DNA of 11,753 bases from a virus (lineage: Duplodnaviria; Heunggongvirae; Uroviricota; Caudoviricetes): the IMG/VR virus record IMGVR_UViG_2531839531_000006. One strand, written 5' to 3'. Within the stretch, counting starts at the first letter, position 1; the number at the start of each line of letters is the position of its first letter. The position numbers and the translations under genes were made by a program. Shown in pieces: positions 1-11,753 of this stretch. The notes beneath the pieces were generated by a model that had not been told where the DNA came from, ran no database searches, and was given only the letters and a program-made list of their open reading frames with translations.

Positions 1-1284
1 TTACTTCTTCGCCTCTGCAACCACTTTACTACCCACGCCGCGGTTATTGTATTCCCACATGCGGTTGTAGTTAGTGTCATTCAGATTGCGCTGTATTTCG
101 TCGTTATCATCTACGCTGCCGGTATTACCCGCAAACGGACGATTAGAGATCACCGCATCGGCCCACGGTTTAGCCGTGTTAAAACCTTCGTTGATGGCGC
201 TATCACGGATCACCACCTGACCGTTGGTATTGGCATCAACATCCAGCGAGCGGCCCAGTTGCGCCACACCATCACCGAAAGCATTGAAACGGCTGTTTAC
301 GGCGAGGAAACCGTAGTAAATGTTGGACAGCGTAGCCGGTGCAAACACATACGCTTCTTGCTGAGTACGTGAGTTCACCACGCGGAATTCGGTGTTATCG
401 AACACCACTGCGCCGCGACCAGAAACGATATCCACATCCCCTTCAATGTAGCTGTTGGTCACCAGCGTACGCGGCTGATGGTTGGTTTCCAGACGGTTCT
501 GCACACCGCTGTTGGTGACAAAGAAGGTGTTCTGACGACCGAGAATGTTAACGTTGTTAATCTGTACCAGGTCACCATCAGTACGCAGTGCCACCGCCGG
601 ATGGTTACCTGCATCTACGCTATCGCCCAGCGTGTTTTCGATGGTCAGATTTTGCAGTTGCAGGCCATTGTTTTGTGACCAGAAGACCGCAGAGCAGAGA
701 ACACCGATACTGTCGCTGCGTTTGCTCTGGCAGCTATCGTACATATACCACGCTGGTTTACCTGGCATATATTTGCCGCGCGGGTTGACGTCGTGACGCC
801 AGTCGGCAGGGCTCATGCCACCATCAAGGGAAAGCCCAATCTTCACATCAATCGGTTTTTCACCTGTACCGTACAGAGTAATTCCACCCGGAGCGGCAGG
901 GACATATACCGTTCCCTGATACTCACCAGGCATCACGGCAATATACTGGCGCTTGTTGGTACGCTTGATAATTGCCGCATCTACCGCCGCCTGAATCGTG
1001 GTATGCGTTACACCTTGAGTGCCCGCCGGGCCGACAACAAAGTCAGGTTGCGCAGGCAGGGTAATCGGGGAAGGATTCCACGCTGCAGCACCTGGTGTCA
1101 GGGATGCAAAATAGTGTTGAGCATCGAAATTCTGCGCTTCTTTTGCCGACAGAATCGGGCGAGAAGAGGTACCAGGCGCGGTTTGATCAGAAGGACGTTG
1201 ATCGGGCGGGGTTGAGCTACAGGCGGTCAGCGTCACGCCAAAAGCCAATGCCAGCGCCAGACGGGAAACTGAAAATGTGTTCAC
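1..1284 (-). CDS. ybhC: Outer-membrane lipoprotein YbhC (pectinesterase-fold putative acyl-CoA thioesterase); host gene flanking lambda attB
   Basis: Complete 427-aa ORF with stop at 1-3. N-terminus MNTFSVSRLALALAFGVTLTAC is a lipoprotein signal peptide with an LTAC lipobox. Sequence matches my recollection of E. coli YbhC, the gene next to lambda attB. Confidence 0.85.
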   Translation of the reverse strand: MNTFSVSRLALALAFGVTLTACSSTPPDQRPSDQTAPGTSSRPILSAKEAQNFDAQHYFASLTPGAAAWNPSPITLPAQPDFVVGPAGTQGVTHTTIQAAVDAAIIKRTNKRQYIAVMPGEYQGTVYVPAAPGGITLYGTGEKPIDVKIGLSLDGGMSPADWRHDVNPRGKYMPGKPAWYMYDSCQSKRSDSIGVLCSAVFWSQNNGLQLQNLTIENTLGDSVDAGNHPAVALRTDGDLVQINNVNILGRQNTFFVTNSGVQNRLETNHQPRTLVTNSYIEGDVDIVSGRGAVVFDNTEFRVVNSRTQQEAYVFAPATLSNIYYGFLAVNSRFNAFGDGVAQLGRSLDVDANTNGQVVIRDSAINEGFNTAKPWADAVISNRPFAGNTGSVDDNDEIQRNLNDTNYNRMWEYNNRGVGSKVVAEAKK

Positions 1285-1330
1285 AGGTTGCTCCGGGCTA
1301 TGAAATAGAAAAATGAATCCGTTGAAGCCT

Positions 1331-1345
1331 GCTTTTTTATACTAA
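1331..1345. other. attL core (15-bp lambda att common core GCTTTTTTATACTAA)
   Basis: Exact 15-bp core at 1331..1345. Host-type sequence (B arm) lies to the left and lambda P'-arm sequence to the right, which is the BOP' arrangement of attL. Confidence 0.9.
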
Positions 1346-1370
1346 GTTGGCATTATAAAAAAGCATTGCT

Positions 1371-1418
1371 TATCAATTTGTTGCAACGAACAGGTCACTA
1401 TCAGTCAAAATAAAATCA
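1371..1418. promoter_or_regulatory. attL P' arm: IHF H' site and Int arm-type binding sites
   Basis: TATCAATTTGTTG at 1371..1383 fits the IHF consensus (WATCAAnnnnTTR). CAGGTCACTAT (1391..1401) and CAGTCAAAAT (1402..1411) fit Int arm-type sites, located between the core and the end of int as in lambda. Confidence 0.7.
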
Positions 1419-2489
1419 TTATTTGATTTCAATTTTGTCCCACTCCCTGCCTCTGTCATCACGATACTGTGATGCCATGGTGTCCGACTTATGCCCGAGA
1501 AGATGTTGAGCAAACTTATCGCTTATCTGCTTCTCATAGAGTCTTGCAGACAAACTGCGCAACTCGTGAAAGGTAGGCGGATCCCCTTCGAAGGAAAGAC
1601 CTGATGCTTTTCGTGCGCGCATAAAATACCTTGATACTGTGCCGGATGAAAGCGGTTCACGACGAGTAGATGCAATTATGGTTTCTCCGCCAAGAATCTC
1701 TTTGCATTTATCAAGTGTTTCCTTCATTGATATCCCGAGAGCATCAACATGCAATGTTGTTGGGATGGCAATTTTTACGCCTGTTTTGCTTTGCTCGACA
1801 TAAAGATATCCATCTACGATATCAGACCACTTCATTTCGCATAAATCACCAACTCGTTGCCCGGTAACAACAGCCAGTTCCATTGCAAGTCTGAGCCAAC
1901 ATGGTGATGATTCTGCTGCTTGATAAATTTTCAGGTATTCGTCAGCCGTAAGTCTTGATCTCCTTACCTCTGATTTTGCTGCGCGAGTGGCAGCGACAGG
2001 GTTTGTTGTTATATGGCCTTCAGCTATTGCCTCTCGGAATGCATCGCTCAGTGTTGATCTGATTAACTTGGCTGACGCCGCCTTGCCCTCGTCTATGTAT
2101 CCATTGAGCATTGCCGCAATTTCTTTTGTGGTGATGTCTTCAAGTGGAGCATCAGGCAGACCCCTCCTTATTGCTTTAATTTTGCTCATGTAATTTATGA
2201 GTGTCTTCTGCTTGATTCCTCTGCTGGCCAGGATTTTTTCGTAGCGATCAAGCCATGAATGTAACGTAACGGAATTATCACTGTTGATTCTCGCTGTCAG
2301 AGGCTTGTGTTTGTGTCCTGAAAATAACTCAATGTTGGCCTGTATGGCTTCAGTGATTGCGATTCGCCTGTCTCTGCCTAATCCAAACTCTTTACCCGTC
2401 CTTGGGTCCCTGTAGCAGTAATATCCATTGTTTCTTATATAAAGGTTAGGGGGTAAATCTCGGCGCTCATGACTTCGCCTTCTTCCCAT
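1419..2489 (-). CDS. int: Lambda-type integrase (tyrosine recombinase)
   Basis: 356-aa ORF beginning MGRRRSHERRDLPPNLYIRNNGYYCYRDPRTGKEFGLG, matching lambda Int in length and sequence as I recall it. It lies beside attL and overlaps xis by 23 nt as in lambda. Confidence 0.95.
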   Translation of the reverse strand: MGRRRSHERRDLPPNLYIRNNGYYCYRDPRTGKEFGLGRDRRIAITEAIQANIELFSGHKHKPLTARINSDNSVTLHSWLDRYEKILASRGIKQKTLINYMSKIKAIRRGLPDAPLEDITTKEIAAMLNGYIDEGKAASAKLIRSTLSDAFREAIAEGHITTNPVAATRAAKSEVRRSRLTADEYLKIYQAAESSPCWLRLAMELAVVTGQRVGDLCEMKWSDIVDGYLYVEQSKTGVKIAIPTTLHVDALGISMKETLDKCKEILGGETIIASTRREPLSSGTVSRYFMRARKASGLSFEGDPPTFHELRSLSARLYEKQISDKFAQHLLGHKSDTMASQYRDDRGREWDKIEIK

Positions 2490-2685
2490 TTCTGATCCTC
2501 TTCAAAAGGCTACCTGTTACTGGTCGATTTAAGTCAACCTTTACCGCTGATTCGTGGAACAGATACTCTCTTCCATCCTTAACCGGAGGAGGGAATATCC
2601 TGCACTCGCGTACCCATCGACGAACTGTTTCAAGGCTTCTTGGGCGTCGCTGGCGTGCGTTCCACTCCTGAAGTGTCAAGTACAT
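2467..2685 (-). CDS. xis: Excisionase
   Basis: 72-aa ORF MYLTLQEWNARQRRPRSLETVRRWVRECRIFPPPVKDGREYLFHESAVKVDLNRPVTGSLLKRIRNGKKAKS, matching lambda Xis in length and sequence as recalled. It overlaps the int start. Confidence 0.95.
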   Translation of the reverse strand: MYLTLQEWNARQRRPRSLETVRRWVRECRIFPPPVKDGREYLFHESAVKVDLNRPVTGSLLKRIRNGKKAKS

Positions 2686-2710
2686 CGCAAAGTCTCCGCA
2701 ATTACACGCA

Positions 2711-2733
2711 AGAAAAAACCGCCATCAGGCGGC
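2711..2733 (-). terminator. Putative rho-independent terminator (minus-strand sense) just upstream of xis
   Basis: Plus-strand CCGCC-ATCA-GGCGG (2719..2732) gives a 5-bp GC stem with a 4-nt loop; on the minus strand it is followed by TTTTTTCT (plus-strand A-run 2711..2718). Confidence 0.4.
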
Positions 2734-2783
2734 TTGGTGTTCTTTCAGTTCTTCAATTCGAATATTGGTTACGTCTGCATGTG

Positions 2784-2984
2784 CTATCTGCGCCCACAGC
2801 ATCCAGTGGTCATAGCAGTCGCTGATGTTCTCGGCTTCGATAACTCTGTTGAATGGTTCTCCATTCCATTCACCTGTGACTCGGAAGTGCATTTATCATC
2901 TCCATAAAACAAAACCCGCCGTAGCGAGTTCAGATAAAAGAAATCCTCGTCAGTGCGAGGATGCTGTTCATTGCTGCTATACAC
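2784..2984 (-). CDS. Hypothetical small protein (66 codons, GTG start); possibly non-coding
   Basis: ORF in the six-frame track. The start codon is GTG (plus strand CAC at 2982..2984) with only a weak GAGAG upstream. No recognisable motif. It sits in the non-lambda cassette. Confidence 0.2.
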   Translation of the reverse strand: MYSSNEQHPRTDEDFFYLNSLRRVLFYGDDKCTSESQVNGMENHSTELSKPRTSATAMTTGCCGRR

Positions 2985-3134
2985 TTTTTTGCTCTCAACG
3001 TAAGCGGTAGCCCATTCTGTTGGGTTGGTGCAGTTGCTTTTAGGAAATGCTATTTACCCCTTAAATGTCGGCTGAAAGAGCTAAAATCCATGCAAAAAAT
3101 TTACGCAATTTTGTGTATTATTGTGCAGTAAGTA

Positions 3135-3737
3135 ATGAGCTATTTTCTGCGCAAAAAATGGATGGTAAATTTGTCCGGGTCAGGAAAAATTTTATGGGCG
3201 CTAAACATGAAAAAAGATTCGTATCCTTATTTGATTTGCATGACAGTTTCAGGGCTGATCTTTATTTTCCTTTTCTTCTGGTGGCGGGCAGATATCTACA
3301 GGGTCACGTTTCTTAATCAGAGTATATCCCACTATTACATTCTGTTTAGCATGGGAATAGCTTTTCTGTTATCTCTGTTTTGGGTTAAGAAGGGGATAGT
3401 AAAACAAAGAGGCTGGAAGAGTCTGTCAGCATACCTTAAGGTTTATGCAGGGATGTGCATATTTGCTGGATTTTTTCTGATTATACCCCTTACGACACTA
3501 ACTTATTTTTTGCCTGGAGAGACATCGTCTTATGTTGCACCGTATCGGTATACTTCCGGTAGTTCAAAAAGTTGTTCTGGAGCTGAGGTGGATGACCCCG
3601 ATCTACATGAGAATATTCGCATTTGCTATCCGTATGGCAATTATGAGTACGATAATATTATCTATGTTGAAAAGAAAATTAATATATTAGGTGCGGTAGT
3701 GACATATGCACAGACCGCGCGTGATGATACTGAATGA
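3135..3737 (+). CDS. Hypothetical integral membrane protein (3 predicted TM helices plus a ~70-aa C-terminal soluble domain); cargo gene in the ea-region slot
   Basis: 200-codon ORF on the strand opposite the early operon, in A+T-rich DNA where chance ORFs of this length are unlikely. Three hydrophobic segments: LICMTVSGLIFIFLFFWW, YYILFSMGIAFLLSLFWV, VYAGMCIFAGFFLIIPLTTLTYFL. Start is ambiguous: in-frame ATGs at 3135, 3162 and 3207, none with a strong Shine-Dalgarno. A hairpin terminator follows the stop. Confidence 0.65.
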   Translation: MSYFLRKKWMVNLSGSGKILWALNMKKDSYPYLICMTVSGLIFIFLFFWWRADIYRVTFLNQSISHYYILFSMGIAFLLSLFWVKKGIVKQRGWKSLSAYLKVYAGMCIFAGFFLIIPLTTLTYFLPGETSSYVAPYRYTSGSSKSCSGAEVDDPDLHENIRICYPYGNYEYDNIIYVEKKINILGAVVTYAQTARDDTE

Positions 3738-3771
3738 TATAGTATATAGCGGGCAAGTTTTAGTTAATTTA

Positions 3772-3809
3772 TCGAGGTAATATAATTTACCTCGACTCGT
3801 TTGTTCTGG
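3772..3809 (+). terminator. Putative rho-independent terminator for the plus-strand membrane-protein gene
   Basis: Perfect 9-bp inverted repeat TCGAGGTAA (3772..3780) / TTACCTCGA (3787..3795) with loop TATAAT, followed by T-rich CTCGTTTGTTCT, about 35 nt after the stop at 3737. Confidence 0.45.
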
Positions 3810-3947
3810 TATTAATATTTCGCTTTACGACCGATTTTTATCTGATGATATCATGCGGTTTTCATATACTGACTTACTGTCTTTTCTCCGTTAGCGATTT
3901 TCTCCTGCTCAGCGATGATTTTATCTTTGGCTTCTAGTTAATTTCGC

Positions 3948-4169
3948 TCACTTCGAACCTCTCTGTTTACTGATAAGCTCCAGATCCTCCTGGCAACTTG
4001 CACAAGTCCGACAACCCTGAACGACCAGGCGTCTTCGTTCATCTATCGGATCGCCACACTCACAACAATGAGTGGCAGATATAGCCTGGTGGTTCAGGCG
4101 GCGCATTTTTATTGCTGTGTTGCGCTGTAATTCTTCAATTTCTGATGCTGAATCAATGATGTCTGCCAT
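3948..4169 (-). CDS. TraR/DksA-family C4 zinc-finger protein (lambda orf73-like RNA polymerase-binding regulator)
   Basis: 73-aa ORF with C35-x2-C38-x17-C56-x2-C59 spacing, the TraR/DksA zinc-finger pattern. Size and position are typical of phage TraR homologues upstream of the recombination module. Confidence 0.8.
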   Translation of the reverse strand: MADIIDSASEIEELQRNTAIKMRRLNHQAISATHCCECGDPIDERRRLVVQGCRTCASCQEDLELISKQRGSK

Positions 4170-4218
4170 CTTCCATTAATCCCTGAATTGTTGGTTAATA
4201 CGCTTGAGGGTGAATGCG

Positions 4219-4245
4219 AATAATAAAAAAGGAGCCTGTAGCTCC
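4219..4245 (-). terminator. Putative rho-independent terminator (minus-strand sense) upstream of the TraR-like gene
   Basis: GGAGC-CTGTA-GCTCC hairpin (4231..4245); on the minus strand it is followed by TTTTTTATTATT (plus-strand A-rich 4219..4230). Confidence 0.4.
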
Positions 4246-4267
4246 CTGATGATTTTGCTTTTCATGT

Positions 4268-4579
4268 TCATCGTTCCTTAAAGACGCCGTTTAACATGCC
4301 GATTGCCAGGCTTAAATGAGTCGGTGTGAATCCCATCAGCGTTACCGTTTCGCGGTGCTTCTTCAGTACGCTACGGCAAATGTCATCGACGTTTTTATCC
4401 GGAAACTGCTGTCTGGCTTTTTTGATTTCAGAATTAGCCTGACGGGCAATGCTGCGAAGGGCGTTTTCCTGCTGAGGTGTCATTGAACAAGTCCCATGTC
4501 GGCAAGCATAAGCACACAGAATATGAAGCCCGCTGCCAGAAAAATGCATTCCGTGGTTGTCATACCTGGTCTCTCTCAT
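4268..4579 (-). CDS. Hypothetical protein (lambda orf61 position; 103 codons from the first ATG, or 71 codons from the internal ATG at 4483)
   Basis: ORF whose start overlaps the stop of the upstream ORF by 20 nt. By collinearity the lambda orf61 annotation would end near 4394, but this frame continues to 4268. No motif recognised. Confidence 0.45.
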   Translation of the reverse strand: MRETRYDNHGMHFSGSGLHILCAYACRHGTCSMTPQQENALRSIARQANSEIKKARQQFPDKNVDDICRSVLKKHRETVTLMGFTPTHLSLAIGMLNGVFKER

Positions 4580-4751
4580 CTGCTTCTGCTTTCGCCACCA
4601 TCATTTCCAGCTTTTGTGAAAGGGATGCGGCTAACGTATGAAATTCTTCGTCTGTTTCTACTGGTATTGGCACAAACCTGACTCCAATTTGAGCGAGGCT
4701 ATGTGCCATCTCGATACTCGTTCTTAACTCAACGGGAGATGCTTTGTGCAT
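4560..4751 (-). CDS. Lambda orf63-like hypothetical protein
   Basis: 63-codon ORF at exactly the position and length of lambda orf63, using the offset fixed by exo/bet/gam. Confidence 0.65.
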   Translation of the reverse strand: MHKASPVELRTSIEMAHSLAQIGVRFVPIPVETDEEFHTLAASLSQKLEMMVAKAEADERDQV

Positions 4752-4906
4752 ACAGCTCCCCGTTTATTATTTATCTCCTCAGCCAGCCGCTGTGCTTTCA
4801 GGGGATTTCGGATAACAGAAAGGCCGGGAAATACCCAGCCTCGCTTCGTAACGGAGTAGACGAAAGTGATCGTGCCTACGCGGATATTATCGTGAGGATG
4901 TTTCAT
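4724..4906 (-). CDS. Lambda orf60a-like hypothetical protein
   Basis: 60 codons from [10 protein letters not shown] (the track ORF begins two codons earlier, at 4912). The stop overlaps the next ORF and the start overlaps the exo stop by 4 nt, as in lambda. Confidence 0.6.
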
Positions 4907-5583
4907 CGCCATTGCTCCCCAAATACAAAACCAATTTCAGCCAGTGCCTCGTCCATTTTTTCGATGAACTCCGGCACCATCTCGTCAAAACTCGCTATAT
5001 ACTTTTCATTCCGCTCAATCACGACATAATGCAGGCCTTCACGCTTCATACGCGGGTCATAGTTGGCAAAGTACCAGGCATCTTTTCGCGTCACCCACAT
5101 GCTGTACTGCACCTGGGCCATGTAAGCCGACTTTATGGCCTCGAAACCACCGAGCCGGAATTTCATGAAATCCCGGGAGGTAAACGGGCATTTCAGCTCA
5201 AGGCCATTGCCGTCACTGCATAAACCATCGGGAGAGCAGGCGGTGCGCATACTTTCGTCGCGATAGATGATCGGGGATTCAATAACATTTACGCCGGAAG
5301 TGAACTCAAACAGGGTTCTGGCGTCGTTCTCGTACTGTTTTCCCCAGGCCAGCGCTTTAGCGTTAACTTCCGGAGCCACACCGGTGCAAACCTCAGCTAG
5401 CAGGGTGTGGAAGTAGGACATTTTCATGTCAGGCCACTTCTTTCCTGATCGGGGCTTTGCTATCACGTTGTGAACTTCTGAAGCGGTGATGACGCCGAGC
5501 CGTAATTTGTGCCATGCATCATCCCCCTGTTCGACAGCTCTCACGTCGATCCCGGTACGCTGCAGGATAATGTCCGGTGTCAT
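4903..5583 (-). CDS. exo: Lambda exonuclease (Red-alpha, 5'-3' dsDNA exonuclease)
   Basis: 226-aa [43 protein letters not shown], matching lambda Exo in length and sequence as recalled. 4-nt overlap with bet. Confidence 0.95.
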
Positions 5584-6365
5584 GCTGCCACCTTCTGCTC
5601 AGTGGCTTTCTGTTTCAGGAATCCAAGAGCTTTCACTGCTTCGGCCTGTGTCAGTTCTGACGATGCGCGAATGTCGCGGCGAAATATCTGGGAACAGAGC
5701 GGCAATAAGTCGTCATCCCATGTTTTATCCAGGGCGATCAGCAGAGTGTTAATCTCCTGCATGGTTTCATCGTTAACCGGAGTGATGTCGCGTTCCGGCT
5801 GACGTTCTGCAGTGTATGCAGTATTTTCGACAATGCGCTCGGCTTCATCCTTGTCATAGATACCAGCAAATCCGAAGGCCAGACGGGCACACTGAATCAT
5901 GGCTTTATGCCGTAACATCCGTTTGGGATGCGACTGCCACGGTCCGGTGATTTCTCTGCCTTCGCGGGTTTTGAATGGTTCGCGGCGGCATTCATCCATC
6001 CACTCGGTAACGCAGATCGGATGATTGCGGTCTTTGCGGTAAATCCGGCATGTGCAGGATTCGTTGTCCTGTTCAAAGTCCATGCCGTCAAACTGCTGGT
6101 TTTCGTTGATGATGCGGGACCAGCCATCAACGCCCACCACCGGAACGATGCCGTTCTGCTTATCAGGGAAGGCGTAAATTTCTTTCGTCCACGGATTAAG
6201 ACCGTACTGGTTGGCGACGATCAGCAATGCGATGAACTGCGCATCGCTGGCATCACCTTTAAATGCCGTCTGGCGAAGAGTGGTGATCAGTTCCTGTGGG
6301 TCGACAGAATCCATGCCGACTCGTTCAGCCAGCTTCCCAGCCAGCGTTGCGAGTGCTGTACTCAT
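5580..6365 (-). CDS. bet: Red-beta single-strand annealing protein
   Basis: 261-aa [69 protein letters not shown], matching lambda Bet in length and sequence as recalled. Confidence 0.95.
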
Positions 6366-6370
6366 CCGTT

Positions 6371-6787
6371 TTATACCTCTGAATCAATATCAACCTGGTG
6401 GTGAGCAATGGTTTCAACCATGTACCGGATGTGTTCTGCCATGCGCTCCTGAAACTCAACATCGTCATCAAACGCACGGGTAATGGCTTTTTTGCTGGCC
6501 CCGTGGCGTTGCAAATGATCGATGCATAGCGATTCAAACAGGTGCTGGGGCAGGCCTTTTTCCATGTCGTCTGCCAGTTCTGCCTCTTTCTCTTCTCGGG
6601 CGATCTGCTGGTAGTGACGCGCCCAGCTCTGAGCCTCAAGACGATCCTGAATGTAATAAGCGTTCATGGCTGAACTCCTGAAATAGCTGTGAAAATATCG
6701 CCCGCGAAATGCCAGGCTGATTAGGAAAACAGGAAAGGGGGTTAGTGAATGCTTTTGCTTGATCTCAGTTTCAGCATTAATATCCAT
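6371..6787 (-). CDS. gam: Gam, RecBCD inhibitor (long form; internal start gives GamS)
   Basis: 138-aa [64 protein letters not shown], matching lambda Gam in length and sequence as recalled. Confidence 0.95.
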
Positions 6788-6885
6788 TTTTTATAAGCGT
6801 CGACGGCTTCACGAAACATCTTTTCATCGCCAATAAAAGTGGCGATAGTGAATTTAGTCTGGATAGCCATAAGTGTTTGATCCAT
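6742..6885 (-). CDS. kil: Kil (FtsZ-targeting host-killing protein)
   Basis: 47 codons from [47 protein letters not shown], with ATG at 6883..6885. Overlaps the gam start by 46 nt and cIII by 32 nt as in lambda. The 89-codon track ORF is an upstream extension. Confidence 0.85.
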
Positions 6886-7018
6886 TCTTTGGGACTCCTG
6901 GCTGATTAAGTATGTCGATAAGGCGTTTCCATCCGTCACGTAATTTACGGGTGATTCGTTCAAGTAAAGATTCGGAAGGGCAGCCAGCAACAGGCCACCC
7001 TGCAATGGCATATTGCAT
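6854..7018 (-). CDS. cIII: CIII (FtsH inhibitor that stabilises CII)
   Basis: 54 codons from [54 protein letters not shown], with ATG at 7016..7018. The 78-codon track ORF is an upstream extension. Confidence 0.85.
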   Translation of the reverse strand: MQYAIAGWPVAGCPSESLLERITRKLRDGWKRLIDILNQPGVPKNGSNTYGYPD

Positions 7019-7090
7019 GGTGTGCTCCTTATTTATACATAACGAAAAACGCCTCGAGTGAAGCGTTATTGGTATGCGGTAAAACCGCAC

Positions 7091-7459
7091 TCAGGCGGCC
7101 TTGATAGTCATATCATCTGAATCAAATATTCCTGATGTATCGATATCGGTAATTCTTATTCCTTCACTACCATCCATTGGAGGCCATCCTTCCTGACCAT
7201 TTCCATCATCCCAGTCGAACTCACAAACAACACCATATGCATTTAAGTCTTTCGAAAGTGCTATAAGCAGAGCATGTTGCGCCAGCATGATTAATACAGC
7301 ATTTAATAAAGAGCCGTGTTTATTGAGTCGGTATTCAGAGTCTGACCAGAAATTATTAATCTGGTGAAGTTTTTCCTCTGTCATTACGTCATGGTCGATT
7401 TCAATTTCTATTGATGCTTTCCAGTCGTAATCAATGATGTATTTTTTGATGTTTGACAT
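7091..7459 (-). CDS. ea10: Ea10 early protein
   Basis: 122-aa ORF MSNIKKYIIDYDWKASIEIEIDHDVMTEEKLHQINNFW, at the lambda ea10 position and length. Confidence 0.85.
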   Translation of the reverse strand: MSNIKKYIIDYDWKASIEIEIDHDVMTEEKLHQINNFWSDSEYRLNKHGSLLNAVLIMLAQHALLIALSKDLNAYGVVCEFDWDDGNGQEGWPPMDGSEGIRITDIDTSGIFDSDDMTIKAA

Positions 7460-7479
7460 CTGTTCATATCCTCACAGAT

Positions 7480-7505
7480 AAAAAATCGCCCTCACACTGG
7501 AGGGC
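7480..7505 (-). terminator. Rho-independent terminator (minus-strand sense) between ral and ea10, in the lambda tL2 region
   Basis: GCCCTC-ACACTG-GAGGGC hairpin (7488..7505), followed on the minus strand by TTTTTT (plus-strand A-run 7480..7485). Confidence 0.5.
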
Positions 7506-7567
7506 AAAGAAGATTTCCAATAATCAGAACAAGTCGACTCCTGTTTAGTTACGAGCGACATTGCTCC

Positions 7568-7595
7568 GTGTATTCACTCGTTGGAATGAATACAC
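7568..7595. repeat. Perfect 9-bp inverted repeat GTGTATTCA-N10-TGAATACAC
   Basis: Read directly from the sequence, in the ea10-ral intergenic region. No flanking T-run on the minus strand, so it is not a typical terminator. Confidence 0.5.
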
Positions 7596-7662
7596 AGTGC
7601 AGTGTTTATTCTGTTATTTATGCAAAAAATAAAGGCCACTATCAGGCAGCTTTGTTGTTCTG

Positions 7663-7842
7663 TTAACCAAGTTCTCTGGCAATCATTGCCGTCGTTCGTA
7701 TTGCCCATTTATCGACATATTTCCCATCTTCTATTACAGGAAACATTTCTTCAGGCTTAACCATGCATTCCGATTGCAGCTTGCATCCATTGCATCGCTT
7801 GAATTGTCCACACCATTGATTCTTATCAATAGTCGTAGTCAT
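7663..7842 (-). CDS. ral: Ral (restriction alleviation), C-terminally truncated: 59 codons ending at an in-frame TAA; the same frame continues KQNNKAA to a TGA at 7642, the lambda-length 66 codons
   Basis: Translates MTTTIDKNQWCGQFKRCNGCKLQSECMVKPEEMFPVIEDGKYVDKWAIRTTAMIARELG then TAA (plus-strand TTA at 7663..7665). ATG is at 7840..7842. Not in the supplied track because it is under 60 codons. Confidence 0.7.
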   Translation of the reverse strand: MTTTIDKNQWCGQFKRCNGCKLQSECMVKPEEMFPVIEDGKYVDKWAIRTTAMIARELG

Positions 7843-7912
7843 ACGGATAGTCCTGGTACTGTTCCATTACATCCTGCGGATGCTCTTCGAACTCTTCAAA
7901 TTCTTCTTCCAT
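7826..7912 (-). CDS. Lambda orf28-like small acidic protein
   Basis: 28 codons MEEEFEEFEEHPQDVMEQYQDYPYDYDY; its stop overlaps the ral start, at the lambda orf28 position. Confidence 0.55.
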   Translation of the reverse strand: MEEEFEEFEEHPQDVMEQYQDYPYDYDY

Positions 7913-8036
7913 ATATCACCTTAAATAGTGGATTGCGGTAGTAAAGATTGTGCCTGTCTTTTAACCACATCAGGCTCGGTGGTTCTCGTGTACCCCTACA
8001 GCGAGAAATCGGATAAACTATTACAACCCCTACAGT

Positions 8037-8591
8037 TTGATGAGTATAGAAATGGATCCACTCGTTATTCTCGGACGAGTGTTCAGTAATGAACCTCTGG
8101 AGAGAACCATGTATATGATCGTTATCTGGGTTGGACTTCTGCTTTTAAGCCCAGATAACTGGCCTGAATATGTTAATGAGAGAATCGGTATTCCTCATGT
8201 GTGGCATGTTTTCGTCTTTGCTCTTGCATTTTCGCTAGCAATTAATGTGCATCGATTATCAGCTATTGCCAGCGCCAGATATAAGCGATTTAAGCTAAGA
8301 AAACGCATTAAGATGCAAAACGATAAAGTGCGATCGGTAATTCAAAACCTTACAGAAGAGCAATCTATGGTTTTGTGCGCAGCCCTTAATGAAGGCAGGA
8401 AGTATGTGGTTACATCAAAACAATTCCCATACATTAGTGAGTTGATTGAGCTTGGTGTGTTGAACAAAACTTTTTCCCGATGGAACGGGAAGCATATATT
8501 ATTCCCTATTGAGGATATTTACTGGACTGAATTAGTTGCCAGCTATGATCCATATAATATTGAGATAAAGCCAAGGCCAATATCTAAGTAA
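8037..8591 (+). CDS. sieB: SieB superinfection exclusion protein (membrane protein; an internal in-frame start would give Esc)
   Basis: 184-aa ORF of exactly lambda sieB length and position, convergent with and abutting the N stop. Hydrophobic segments MYMIVIWVGLLLLSP and VFVFALAFSLAI. Confidence 0.9.
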   Translation: MMSIEMDPLVILGRVFSNEPLERTMYMIVIWVGLLLLSPDNWPEYVNERIGIPHVWHVFVFALAFSLAINVHRLSAIASARYKRFKLRKRIKMQNDKVRSVIQNLTEEQSMVLCAALNEGRKYVVTSKQFPYISELIELGVLNKTFSRWNGKHILFPIEDIYWTELVASYDPYNIEIKPRPISK

Positions 8592-8915
8592 CTAGGTAAG
8601 AGGAATCGATTTTCCCTTAATTTTCTGGCGTCCACTGCATGTTATGCCGCGTTCGCCAGGCTTGCTGTACCATGTGCGCTGATTCTTGCGCTCAATACGT
8701 TGCAGGTTGCTTTCAATCTGTTCGTGGTATTCAGCCAGCACTGTAAGGTCTATCGGATTCAGTGCGCTTTCTACTCGTGATTTCGGTTTGCGATTCAGCG
8801 AGAGAATAGGGCGGTTAACTGGTTTTGCGCTTACCCCAACCAACAGGGGATTTGCTACTTTCCATTGAGCCTGTTTCTCTGCGCGACGTTCGCGGCGGCG
8901 TGTTTGTGCATCCAT
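8592..8915 (-). CDS. N: N transcription antitermination protein
   Basis: 107 codons from MDAQTRRRERRAEKQAQWKVANPLLVGVSAKPVNRPILSLNRKPKSRVESALNPIDLTVLAEYH, including the arginine-rich RNA-binding motif. Shine-Dalgarno AGGAGA precedes the ATG at 8913..8915. The 137-codon track ORF is an upstream extension. Confidence 0.9.
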   Translation of the reverse strand: MDAQTRRRERRAEKQAQWKVANPLLVGVSAKPVNRPILSLNRKPKSRVESALNPIDLTVLAEYHEQIESNLQRIERKNQRTWYSKPGERGITCSGRQKIKGKSIPLT

Positions 8916-9025
8916 CTGGATTCTCCTGTCAGTTAGCTTTGAGTAACGCGCCGTGATGCTTATCCCCACGGTTGCTGTCTTGCAGCTGCATTTCGCGCTA
9001 CTCAAAGCTTTCTGCTTTGAATGCT

Positions 9026-9056
9026 GCCCTTCTTCAGGGCTAAATTTTTAAGAGCC
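9026..9056 (-). promoter_or_regulatory. nutL (boxB hairpin plus boxA)
   Basis: Minus-strand boxB GCCCTGAAGAAGGGC (9026..9040) is identical to lambda boxB as I recall it. boxA-like GGCTCTTAA (9048..9056) lies 7 nt upstream on the transcript. Confidence 0.8.
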
Positions 9057-9096
9057 TCACCTTCAATGGTGGTTAGTGCGTCCTGCTGACGGGCTA

Positions 9097-9125
9097 AGTA
9101 TCACCGCTAGTGGTATTTGTGTCAA
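9097..9125 (-). promoter_or_regulatory. pL promoter (-35 TTGACA, 17-bp spacer, -10 GATACT)
   Basis: Minus-strand TTGACA (9120..9125) and GATACT (9097..9102) with a 17-nt spacer, the lambda pL hexamers, upstream of nutL and N. Confidence 0.8.
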
Positions 9126-9159
9126 CACCGCTAGAGATATTTTATCACCGCAAATGGTT
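9099..9159. promoter_or_regulatory. OL1-OL2-OL3 CI/Cro operators
   Basis: Three 17-bp sites with TATCACCGC-type half-sites: TATCACCGCTAGTGGTA (9099..9115), CAACACCGCTAGAGATA (9123..9139), TATCACCGCAAATGGTT (9143..9159). They overlap pL as in lambda. Confidence 0.75.
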
Positions 9160-9345
9160 ATCTGTATGTTTTTTATATGGATTTATTTTTTCGAGTGAGT
9201 GTATTGCCTCGGCGATGTAAGGAGAGATCAGAATTGCGTTGTTTAGTGAGTGTAACCGGCTCATTTAAACCGTCTGGTCTGTTTCCTCCGGCTCTACAAA
9301 AATAATGTCCATCATTTTTGAACTGCGCCCCAGATCTTGGACAAC

Positions 9346-10209
9346 TTATGCAGCCTGACTCAATCGATATTGTACCGGGCTAAGACCGCCAAGTTTTTCC
9401 TTTATCCTCAATTGATTATAATAGTTTATGTAATCAATGATGTCTCGCTTTAAGTCCTCCACATTTTTATATTCATTGAGGTAATAACATTCTGATTTCA
9501 ATGTTCCAAAAAAGCTCTCTATAACTGCATTATCAAGACAATTTCCCCGGCGAGACATACTCTGGACTATACCGCTATCCTTTAACCATCGTTGCCACCG
9601 GGACATCTGATATTGCCAACCTTGATCGCTGTGCAGTATGGGGTGTTCATCTTTCGACAGCTGTTTCAGCGCATCCGTAAGCATAGTCTGCACCATTGAA
9701 GGTTGAGGGCGAGTGGCGAGGTTATAGGAAATTATTTCTCCATTATAAAGATCCATGACGGGCGACAAATACAGCTTCTTGCCATTCACTTTAAATTCAG
9801 TGACATCTGTAACCCACTTCTCGTTGGGGCGTTTTGCATCAAAATTGCGTTTCAGGAGATTATCGCAAATTCGTCCTTGTTCTCCTTTATATGAACGGTA
9901 TTTTTTAACGCGGATCAGGCTGCTAATACCCAGTTCCTTCATCAGTTTTCTGACGGTTTTACCATTAAGTAAAACCCCCTCGTTACGACATGCCAGCCTG
10001 ATGCGTCTGTAACCATAGCGGCCTTTGTGCTGGTGATAAATTTTCAGCACAAGCGCTCTGGCAGACTGATACCGGTCAGGAGCAGCAAGCCGTCTGACAT
10101 GATAGTAAAATGTACTCCGGGGCAGCCCGGAAACAATTAACAATCGGGACAATGGCCATTCCTGCCTTAGTTCATTCACAATGCTCACTTTTTCCTGAAC
10201 GTTGAGCAT
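9346..10209 (-). CDS. IS3-family transposase OrfB (DDE catalytic domain; expressed as OrfAB fusion by -1 frameshift)
   Basis: 287-aa ORF containing HSDQGWQY, RKGNCLDNAV and YYN motifs typical of IS3/IS150 OrfB. Overlaps orfA by 25 nt in the -1 frame. Confidence 0.85.
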   Translation of the reverse strand: MLNVQEKVSIVNELRQEWPLSRLLIVSGLPRSTFYYHVRRLAAPDRYQSARALVLKIYHQHKGRYGYRRIRLACRNEGVLLNGKTVRKLMKELGISSLIRVKKYRSYKGEQGRICDNLLKRNFDAKRPNEKWVTDVTEFKVNGKKLYLSPVMDLYNGEIISYNLATRPQPSMVQTMLTDALKQLSKDEHPILHSDQGWQYQMSRWQRWLKDSGIVQSMSRRGNCLDNAVIESFFGTLKSECYYLNEYKNVEDLKRDIIDYINYYNQLRIKEKLGGLSPVQYRLSQAA

Positions 10210-10691
10210 GTTTTCTGCTGAACCAAGGCTTTCAGCTTTTTTAAGTAGGCATTCTCGACCCTGAGTTGTTCAAGTTCTTCTCTCTCATCTTTGGTTAATG
10301 TTGGTAGTGGTGGTGCTGAAATGGCGCTTTTATCCGGCACAGGAATACTCTTTTTATTTTTTCGAATGAAAGCATCTTCGCCATATTTTCTATATTTTTC
10401 AAGCCAGTTGCATACAGTACCAAAGGCTGGTATTCCGTGTTTTACCGCTACTTCACGAACAGAAAAACAGTCATCCACGACTTCTTTTACTACTGTGAGT
10501 TTTAACTCAGCAGAATAGCGTCCTTTTTTACCCGTAAGTATGCTTATCCCATGTTCCCGATAGGCATAAGCCCATTTTCTTACTGTGCAGGGACTGATAC
10601 CGTACATCCTTGCTACAGATTTCAGACTCAACTCTCCCTCCAGGTACTTTTCTGATACTACCTTTTTGAACTCCAATGAAAACTTTTCCAT
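10185..10691 (-). CDS. IS3-family transposase OrfA (HTH plus leucine zipper)
   Basis: 168-aa ORF with an N-terminal helix-turn-helix (SVARMYGISPCTVRKWAYAY) and a C-terminal coiled coil (EELEQLRVENAYLKKLKALV). Confidence 0.85.
   Translation of the reverse strand: MEKFSLEFKKVVSEKYLEGELSLKSVARMYGISPCTVRKWAYAYREHGISILTGKKGRYSAELKLTVVKEVVDDCFSVREVAVKHGIPAFGTVCNWLEKYRKYGEDAFIRKNKKSIPVPDKSAISAPPLPTLTKDEREELEQLRVENAYLKKLKALVQQKTCSTFRKK
10236..10242 (-). other. Programmed -1 ribosomal frameshift heptamer A AAA AAG (orfA to orfB)
   Basis: Plus-strand CTTTTTT at 10236..10242 is AAAAAAG on the coding strand, in the orfA/orfB overlap, as in other IS3-family elements. Confidence 0.7.
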
Positions 10692-10758
10692 GCATCCTCA
10701 GTTTTTGGTCTGGTGTCTAACCTTTGGGGCGCAGTTCATTTTTAATGGACACTATCGT

Positions 10759-11406
10759 ATGAAACACCGGACCTGGATCACTGAAGCTTTACGTCTTCAC
10801 TTTGAAGAACATTTACCCCGGGTTGTGGCCGGGCGTCGCCTGGGTGTACCAAAATCAACAGTTTGTAGTATGTTCGTGCGCTTTCGGAGAGCTGGCCTTT
10901 CGTGGCCTTTGCCCGCAGGCATGTCGGAGCAGGAACTTGATGCCTGCCTTTACGGACAATTTTCCACGGTACCAGTCGTACGTCCTGAAAGCACCGTTAT
11001 ATCCGAAGCCCCCGTGGTAAAAAAACGTCCCCGGCGGCCCAACTTCCCTTATGAGTTTAAAATCGCCTTAGTGGAGCAGTCACTGCAGCCCGGAGCCTGT
11101 GTGGCGCAGATCGCCCGGGAAAACGGAATCAACGATAACCTGCTCTTCAACTGGCGCCATCAATACCGGAAAGGTGGCCTGCTGCCTTCCGGAAAAAATA
11201 TGCCGGCACTGCTTCCCGTGACGTTAACGCCGGAGCCGGATAATAAAATCCCGGCCCCCGCACAGGAACCAGAGCAGATAAATACACCGTCCGACAGTCT
11301 GTGTTGTGAGCTGGTTCTGCCGGCCGGAACTCTCAGGCTTAAAGGTAAACTGACGCCGGCGTTATTACAGACACTTATCCGCGAAATAAAAGGGAGCAGC
11401 CACTGA
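10759..11406 (+). CDS. IS66-family Orf1 (TnpA-like accessory protein); start codon uncertain
   Basis: C-terminal part (RPRRPNFPYEFKIALVEQSLQPGACVAQIARENGINDNLLFNWRHQYRKGG ... CELVLPAGTLRLKGKLTPALLQTLIREIKG) is typical of IS66 Orf1. First in-frame ATG outside the IS3 element is at 10759 (MKHRTW...) and lacks a good Shine-Dalgarno. The 273-codon track ORF begins inside the IS3 inverted repeat and is an artefact. Confidence 0.5.
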   Translation: MKHRTWITEALRLHFEEHLPRVVAGRRLGVPKSTVCSMFVRFRRAGLSWPLPAGMSEQELDACLYGQFSTVPVVRPESTVISEAPVVKKRPRRPNFPYEFKIALVEQSLQPGACVAQIARENGINDNLLFNWRHQYRKGGLLPSGKNMPALLPVTLTPEPDNKIPAPAQEPEQINTPSDSLCCELVLPAGTLRLKGKLTPALLQTLIREIKGSSH

Positions 11407-11753
11407 TGATATCTCTCCCTGCAGGTTCGCGTATCTGGCTGGTTGCAGGTATCACCGATATGCGAAATGGCTTTAACGGCCTGGCATCAAAAGTTCAGAA
11501 CGTCCTGAAGGATGACCCGTTCTCCGGACACCTGTTCATCTTCCGCGGACGCCGGGGTGACCAGATAAAAGTGTTGTGGGCTGACAGTGACGGACTGTGC
11601 CTCTTCACCAAACGCCTGGAGCGGGGCCGCTTCGTCTGGCCAGTCACCCGTGACGGCAAGGTGCACCTTACTCCGGCTCAGTTATCCATGCTTCTTGAAG
11701 GTATCAACTGGAAGCACCCGAAACGAACGGAACGCGCTGGAATCCGCATATAA
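11406..11753 (+). CDS. IS66-family TnpB (Orf2)
   Basis: 115-aa ORF MISLPAGSRIWLVAGITDMRNGFNGLASKVQNVLKDDPFSGHLFIFRGRRGDQIKVLWAD, matching IS66-family TnpB as I recall it. Its ATG overlaps the orf1 TGA (TGATG). Stop is at the window end. Confidence 0.85.
   Translation: MISLPAGSRIWLVAGITDMRNGFNGLASKVQNVLKDDPFSGHLFIFRGRRGDQIKVLWADSDGLCLFTKRLERGRFVWPVTRDGKVHLTPAQLSMLLEGINWKHPKRTERAGIRI

Follow-up and report, generated by a model that had tools for sequence, protein, structure and literature searches.

What keeps a leftward lambdoid promoter silent when no repressor gene lies beside it? This question is raised by the 11,753-nucleotide stretch of DNA analysed here (the window), in which phage DNA carrying pL, its operators and the pL operon is followed by mobile-element DNA that fills the window from 9252 to its end, and within which neither cI nor the rex genes are found. 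A preliminary description of the window had concluded that no repressor gene follows pL and that IS elements occupy the rex/cI position, and it allowed for two cases, an immunity region on the far side of the IS66 element or a defective prophage silenced in trans or by other means. We consider it very probable that the locus results from a simple insertion of an IS66::IS3 unit into the spacer between OL3 and the terminator Timm, and that the prophage's own CI represses pL.

A lambda-like left arm at the lambda attachment site

The prophage occupies the lambda attachment site (attB-lambda) beside ybhC, and the attL core is flanked by ybhC, int and xis (Table 1). Over window positions 1-9250, it is 99.9% identical, at full length, to the prophage at the same site in Escherichia coli PCP06101, and its left operon has the same gene order as that of lambda (J02459). 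The window ends coincide exactly with gene ends, namely the ybhC stop codon (position 1) and the tnpB stop codon (position 11753). The same N and left-arm genes are found in another E. coli chromosome, CP126295.1 (locus L009). At 14882-17275, in place of the TraR-like, xis and int genes of the window, that chromosome carries genes for a DDE_Tnp_1 transposase and a beta-lactamase, apparently a resistance transposition unit that was inserted into the prophage end or truncates it.

Two further features of the left arm were recorded. The lambda cIII thermoregulator element (RF01804, 88.5 bits), at 6973-7031 on the minus strand, is intact upstream of cIII and was the sole Rfam match in the window at the gathering threshold. 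A 200-amino-acid (aa) open reading frame (ORF) at 3135-3737 (plus strand) runs opposite to the neighbouring b-region genes; its counterpart in the PCP06101 prophage is annotated as hypothetical, no Pfam domain is listed for the window ORF in the precomputed table, and this ORF could represent a moron.

Table 1. Coordinates of the prophage, insertion and immunity-region features. Positions marked "ext." continue the window numbering into the chromosome CP189652.1, which was read up to 18915.
Feature	Position	Strand	Description
ybhC	1-1284	minus	host gene
attL core	1331-1345	plus	GCTTTTTTATACTAA; between ybhC and int; exact match, ~0.01 expected by chance
int, xis, b-region genes, exo, bet, gam, kil, cIII, ea10, ral, N		minus	left-arm genes
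sieB		plus	within left arm, listed between ral and N
kil	6742-6885	minus	47 aa, pL operon; Pfam Lambda_Kil, E = 2e-20
N	8592-8915	minus	antiterminator gene, intact 107-aa ORF
nutL	9026-9056	minus	boxB 9026-9040, boxA 9049-9056; mEp332 annotation transferred through alignment
pL	9125-9097	minus	-35 TTGACA (9125-9120), 17-bp spacer, -10 GATACT (9102-9097)
OL1	9099-9115		TATCACCGCTAGTGGTA; 16/17 identical to lambda OL1
OL2	9123-9139		CAACACCGCTAGAGATA; 16/17 identical to lambda OL2
OL3	9143-9159		TATCACCGCAAATGGTT; 16/17 identical to lambda OL3
Phage spacer, OL3 to insertion	9160-9251		identical to mEp332
IS66 left end (IRL)	9252-9318	plus	GTAACCGGCTC...; 67 bp, split from remainder by nested IS3
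IS3-family element	9319-10738	minus	1,420 bp; ends TGAACTGCGCC...GGCGCAGTTCA, terminal inverted repeats confirmed
IS3 orfAB	10691-9346	minus	programmed frameshift; rve and HTH domains
IS66 continuation	10739-11753	plus	resumes after IS3
tnpA	10759-11406	plus	Pfam HTH_Tnp_1
tnpB	11406-11753	plus	Pfam TnpB_IS66
tnpC	ext. 11773-13344		DDE_Tnp_IS66, zf-IS66, LZ_Tnp_IS66; read in CP189652.1
IS66 right end (IRR)	ext. 13374		...GAGTCGCTTAC; read in CP189652.1
Timm			terminator before the 345-aa ORF; annotated on mEp332
345-aa ORF	ext. 13496-14533		L008 4383-5420
cI	ext. 14556-15269
OR3, OR2, OR1	ext. 15280-15343
cro	ext. 15370-15570
cII, O, P, ren, ninB	ext. 15689-18413

The pL region itself is in good order. 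pL had 10/12 consensus matches in a promoter scan and aligns with the annotated pL of both mEp332 and lambda; around pL and OL, the window is ~95% identical to lambda. The operators were located by pattern match to the annotated operators of lambda and have the same specificity, with the central base being the site of two of their three changes; as in lambda immunity (imm-lambda), three 17-bp CI/Cro operators with lambda half-sites overlap a leftward promoter. The boxB hairpin of nutL was also found in the promoter/terminator scan. The N protein is identical to lambda N at 104 of 106 residues (98%), and the exact protein is present in 388 blocks of the public collection. Taken at the level of sequence, the likeness of pL, OL, nutL and N to their lambda counterparts clearly points to homology rather than chance. 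The kil product is named Kil in the annotation of the near-identical PCP06101 prophage. The preliminary description was therefore right that pL, OL1-3, nutL and N are intact and that the pL operon encodes Kil.

Over positions 8500-9254, the window shows 99.6% identity to phage mEp332 (GenBank EF120456 and PV340541), which record EF120456 presents as an isolated wild phage. OL1-3 are identical in the two, and across pL, the operators and nutL only one base differs, at 9092, between the -10 element and the start site. We take mEp332 to be a wild lambda-immunity phage on the basis of its GenBank records; Degnan et al. 2007 reportedly describe it as such. The window ceases to resemble mEp332, lambda and PCP06101 after position 9251, which lies 92 bp beyond OL3; the spacer to the right of OL3 is itself partly divergent between lambda and the window.

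A composite IS66::IS3 unit

The inserted DNA is a single 4,123-bp unit, consisting of an ISCro1-like IS66-family element with a nested IS3-family element. The segment at 9252-9318 begins GTAACCGGCTCATTTAAACC, its near-identical copies are labelled ISCro1-like by PGAP, and other copies of the IS66 element have the same left boundary as position 9252. We also considered an IS3 element abutting the phage DNA and rejected it, because 9252-9318 is the left end of IS66, which in a copy without IS3 (locus L002) runs straight into the tnpA leader. GTAA-starting ends and an 8-bp target duplication define the IS66 family, and the element has both, with the tnpA/tnpB/tnpC set; its left terminus is GTAACCGGCTC, and the reverse complement of its right terminus is GTAAGCGACTC.

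The nested element shows the characters of the IS3 family, namely orfA and orfB with a programmed -1 frameshift, an rve DDE domain, TG...CA ends and a target duplication within the range of 3-5 bp. This duplication is the 4-bp TTTT, as deduced from the IS3-free copy, which reads CATCATTTTTAATGG. Identical copies of this IS3 carry the PGAP label 'IS3 family transposase, programmed frameshift'.

Full-length copies of the identical 4,123-bp composite were found in 24 complete E. coli records, comprising chromosomes as well as plasmids. In the three composite copies examined, IS3 occupies the same internal offset (68-1487), and perfect 8-bp duplications flank the composite in the pap operon of APEC O2-211 (TTTATTTC) and in plasmid pKMi025_3 (TTTCATCT). 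The constant offset and the perfect duplications at unrelated sites indicate that the composite moves as a unit, and thus that IS3 would have entered IS66 first, the pair then transposing together into the prophage. Compared with the other copies, the target alone differs: here it is a prophage regulatory spacer, and in the others it is the pap operon, a plasmid backbone or some further site. In avian pathogenic strains, the composite lies between papC and the chaperone gene and so disrupts the pap fimbrial operon (locus L015 is the APEC O2-211 chromosome); on pKMi025_3 (locus L016), it adjoins the anti-phage gene ppl; and GPEC1366 (L002) has, in addition, the IS3-free copy and rearranged copies at the pap locus.

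An intact immunity region beyond the insertion in a matching chromosome

The window ends inside IS66, and the right junction was taken from a chromosome differing from it at one base. This chromosome, CP189652.1 (GCA_051991285.1, locus L008), was one of ten places returned by an exact look-up of the window N protein, next to which it carries IS3 and IS66 genes. The chromosome and the window agree at 11,752 of 11,753 bases, and the agreement extends across the phage/IS66 junction and the IS66/IS3 junction; given the sole mismatch, at position 7624 between ea10 and ral, CP189652.1 may represent a sister isolate or another assembly relative to the source of the window. CP189652.1 was the only public sequence found with the phage/IS66 junction: a 36-base pattern across this junction had no match in genome_contigs, viral_contigs or metagenome_contigs, and a megablast search of complete E. 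coli genomes returned none that spans it, each match covering either the phage half or the IS half.

At the right junction, CP189652.1 reads ...GAGTCGCTTAC / TAGTGAGT / TGTATCTATTT..., so that the 8 bp TAGTGAGT found at window 9244-9251 are repeated right after the right end of IS66 as a perfect target duplication. Past the right copy, the chromosome continues exactly as mEp332 and the uninterrupted PCP06101 prophage do. In a BLAST comparison with PCP06101, extended positions 1-9254 and 13375-18450 fell on one contiguous stretch and overlapped by the duplicated 8 bp only, indicating that none of the phage DNA was lost. Replacement of rex/cI by IS elements is rejected on the basis of this duplication and of the base-for-base continuity with PCP06101; the phage sequence does break off about 90 bp past OL3, as had been stated, but it is interrupted there and not replaced.

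The insertion point corresponds to base 1644 of mEp332, which has no insertion there, and Timm lies 65 bp further on (mEp332 1709-1735). At 92 bp from OL3 and still 65 bp ahead of Timm, the insertion leaves every annotated promoter, operator, terminator and gene uncut. The sequence rich in A/T immediately upstream of OL3, with its IHF and UP-like elements at about -70 to -100, contributes to pL activity; it too is intact, since the insertion lies near -154.

In CP189652.1, IS66 is directly followed by Timm, a 345-aa ORF, cI, OR1-3 and cro. An intact cI is thus present beyond IS66, contrary to the claim that no repressor gene follows, and the alternative that the preliminary description had allowed for, an immunity region past the IS66 element, is what the chromosome contains. 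The CI protein (237 aa) is identical to that of mEp332 and to lambda CI at 230 of 237 residues (97%), with none of the seven differences, as we read the alignment, falling inside the helix-turn-helix. It holds both the HTH (HTH_3) and the Peptidase_S24 domains (Pfam). Cro is identical to lambda Cro at all 66 residues, OR3 and OR2 are exact lambda matches, and OR1 matches at 16 of 17 positions; the part of the OR stretch that was compared with mEp332 is also identical. Outside the window, CP189652.1 therefore has the components that define imm-lambda, namely a lambda-specificity cI with HTH and S24 domains, OR1-3 and cro.

One difference from lambda concerns the rex genes. Whereas lambda has rexA and rexB, no rexA or rexB is present between cI and OL in CP189652.1, PCP06101 or mEp332, and a single 345-aa ORF takes their place, its product being identical in CP189652.1 and mEp332. 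The preliminary description had placed rexB, rexA and cI outside the window and had proposed to look for them past IS66, where finding them would mark a simple IS insertion. None of the three is in the window and the cI region was found past IS66; rexAB was absent and was not to be expected, because mEp332 and the near-identical, uninterrupted PCP06101 have the 345-aa ORF in this position. The ORF had no Pfam or PADLOC match and belongs to PHROG 6191 (unknown function). Its homologues form only 11 clusters, including ones from Yersinia enterocolitica and Morganella morganii, and the sole 345-aa cluster representative returned differs from it at residue 241 (D to N); the ORF also occurs at L003 21365-22402 and L001 1758-2795. 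Its position in the rexAB slot, between cI and Timm, makes it a candidate exclusion gene, predicted to be expressed in the lysogen.

A second, different IS66-family element (left end GTAAGCGTAAAGCC) is present from extended position 18451 onward (L008 1-465), where it interrupts the Dam-like methyltransferase gene of the nin region, 40 bp from the gene start. The same prophage has therefore received at least two independent IS66-family insertions, and it may be defective for other reasons.

Control of pL

From these observations, we propose that a mEp332-like lambda-immunity prophage at attB-lambda took a single transposition event. The incoming composite, an ISCro1-like IS66 already carrying IS3 67 bp inside its left end, would have inserted into the non-coding OL3-Timm spacer, duplicating TAGTGAGT and removing no phage DNA, and would have displaced cI by ~4 kb while leaving a complete immunity region just past IS66. 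The prophage's own CI would then bind OL1-3 and keep pL, N and kil off as usual. In the matching genome, the anatomy and the junctions are read directly, and cI, cro and the operators are seen to be intact; that CI is expressed and represses pL, N and kil is most likely, judging from the sequence identity to the isolated wild phage mEp332.

A very different outcome would follow if, in the source genome of the window, IS66 marked the endpoint of a deletion or rearrangement, the immunity region being gone and pL being silenced by the lambda-specificity repressor of another prophage or by other means. The right junction does lie outside the window, the window and CP189652.1 do differ at one base, and the second IS66-family element, ~5 kb further on in CP189652.1, makes IS-mediated rearrangement conceivable in this lineage. 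However, the only public sequence bearing the junction has a perfect 8-bp duplication with uninterrupted phage DNA beyond it, and the second element ends differently (GTAAGCGTAAAGCC versus GTAACCGGCTCATT) and is a different element, so that it would be a poor partner for homologous recombination. A kil-bearing pL operon without a repressor would, moreover, be counter-selected, given established lambda biology. We regard such a loss of the immunity region as very improbable, and a defective prophage silenced in trans, as had been suggested, finds no support, since the cI region follows IS66 in CP189652.1.

The insertion could also be simple in structure and yet alter the switch, through weaker looping by CI octamers, looser repression of pR and pL, relief of the OR3-mediated negative autoregulation of pRM, and CI-independent read-through from IS3 into nutL, N and kil. 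The sole structural change to the switch is the distance between OL and OR: OL2 and OR2 are 6,180 bp apart here, compared with 2,359 bp in lambda and 2,049 bp in both mEp332 and PCP06101. The in vivo efficiency of CI looping was 0.84 at 2 kb, 0.16 at 20 kb and 0.03 at 50 kb (PMC5435920), and our own power-law interpolation of these figures gives ~0.5 at 6.2 kb. In addition, IS3 orfAB is read from the minus strand, in the direction of OL and pL, and a scan of 8900-9450 detected no terminator-like site on that strand, making weak read-through conceivable. On the other side, a lysogen should remain stable even with looping at about half its full efficiency; lysogens of lambda without OL are reportedly viable, from work by Dodd and colleagues, and the transposase promoters of IS3-family elements are weak. 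The arrangement also persists in a sequenced chromosome and is therefore tolerated. We infer that OL-OR looping is weakened but not lost, and we hold an altered switch of this kind to be possible, if on balance unlikely. Still more doubtful is that the insertion, which stretches the loop from 2.05 to 6.18 kb and brings in an IS3 transposase gene reading toward pL, acts as a natural spacing mutant; in such a lysogen, CI autoregulation would be measurably altered, the induction threshold would be shifted, or N and kil would be expressed leakily and independently of CI.

Discussion

The event is of an already known kind, an ordinary transposon insertion. With the right junction at hand, the apparent case of an intact pL-N-kil operon lacking a repressor would be accounted for by the position of the window edge combined with a simple IS insertion into the OL3-Timm spacer, and a false lead is thereby removed. 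Among the chromosomes, plasmids and prophages of E. coli, the ISCro1-like::IS3 composite has demonstrably transposed as a single unit. Finally, a wild prophage in which the distance between OL and OR has tripled could serve as a natural test of how CI looping depends on loop length.
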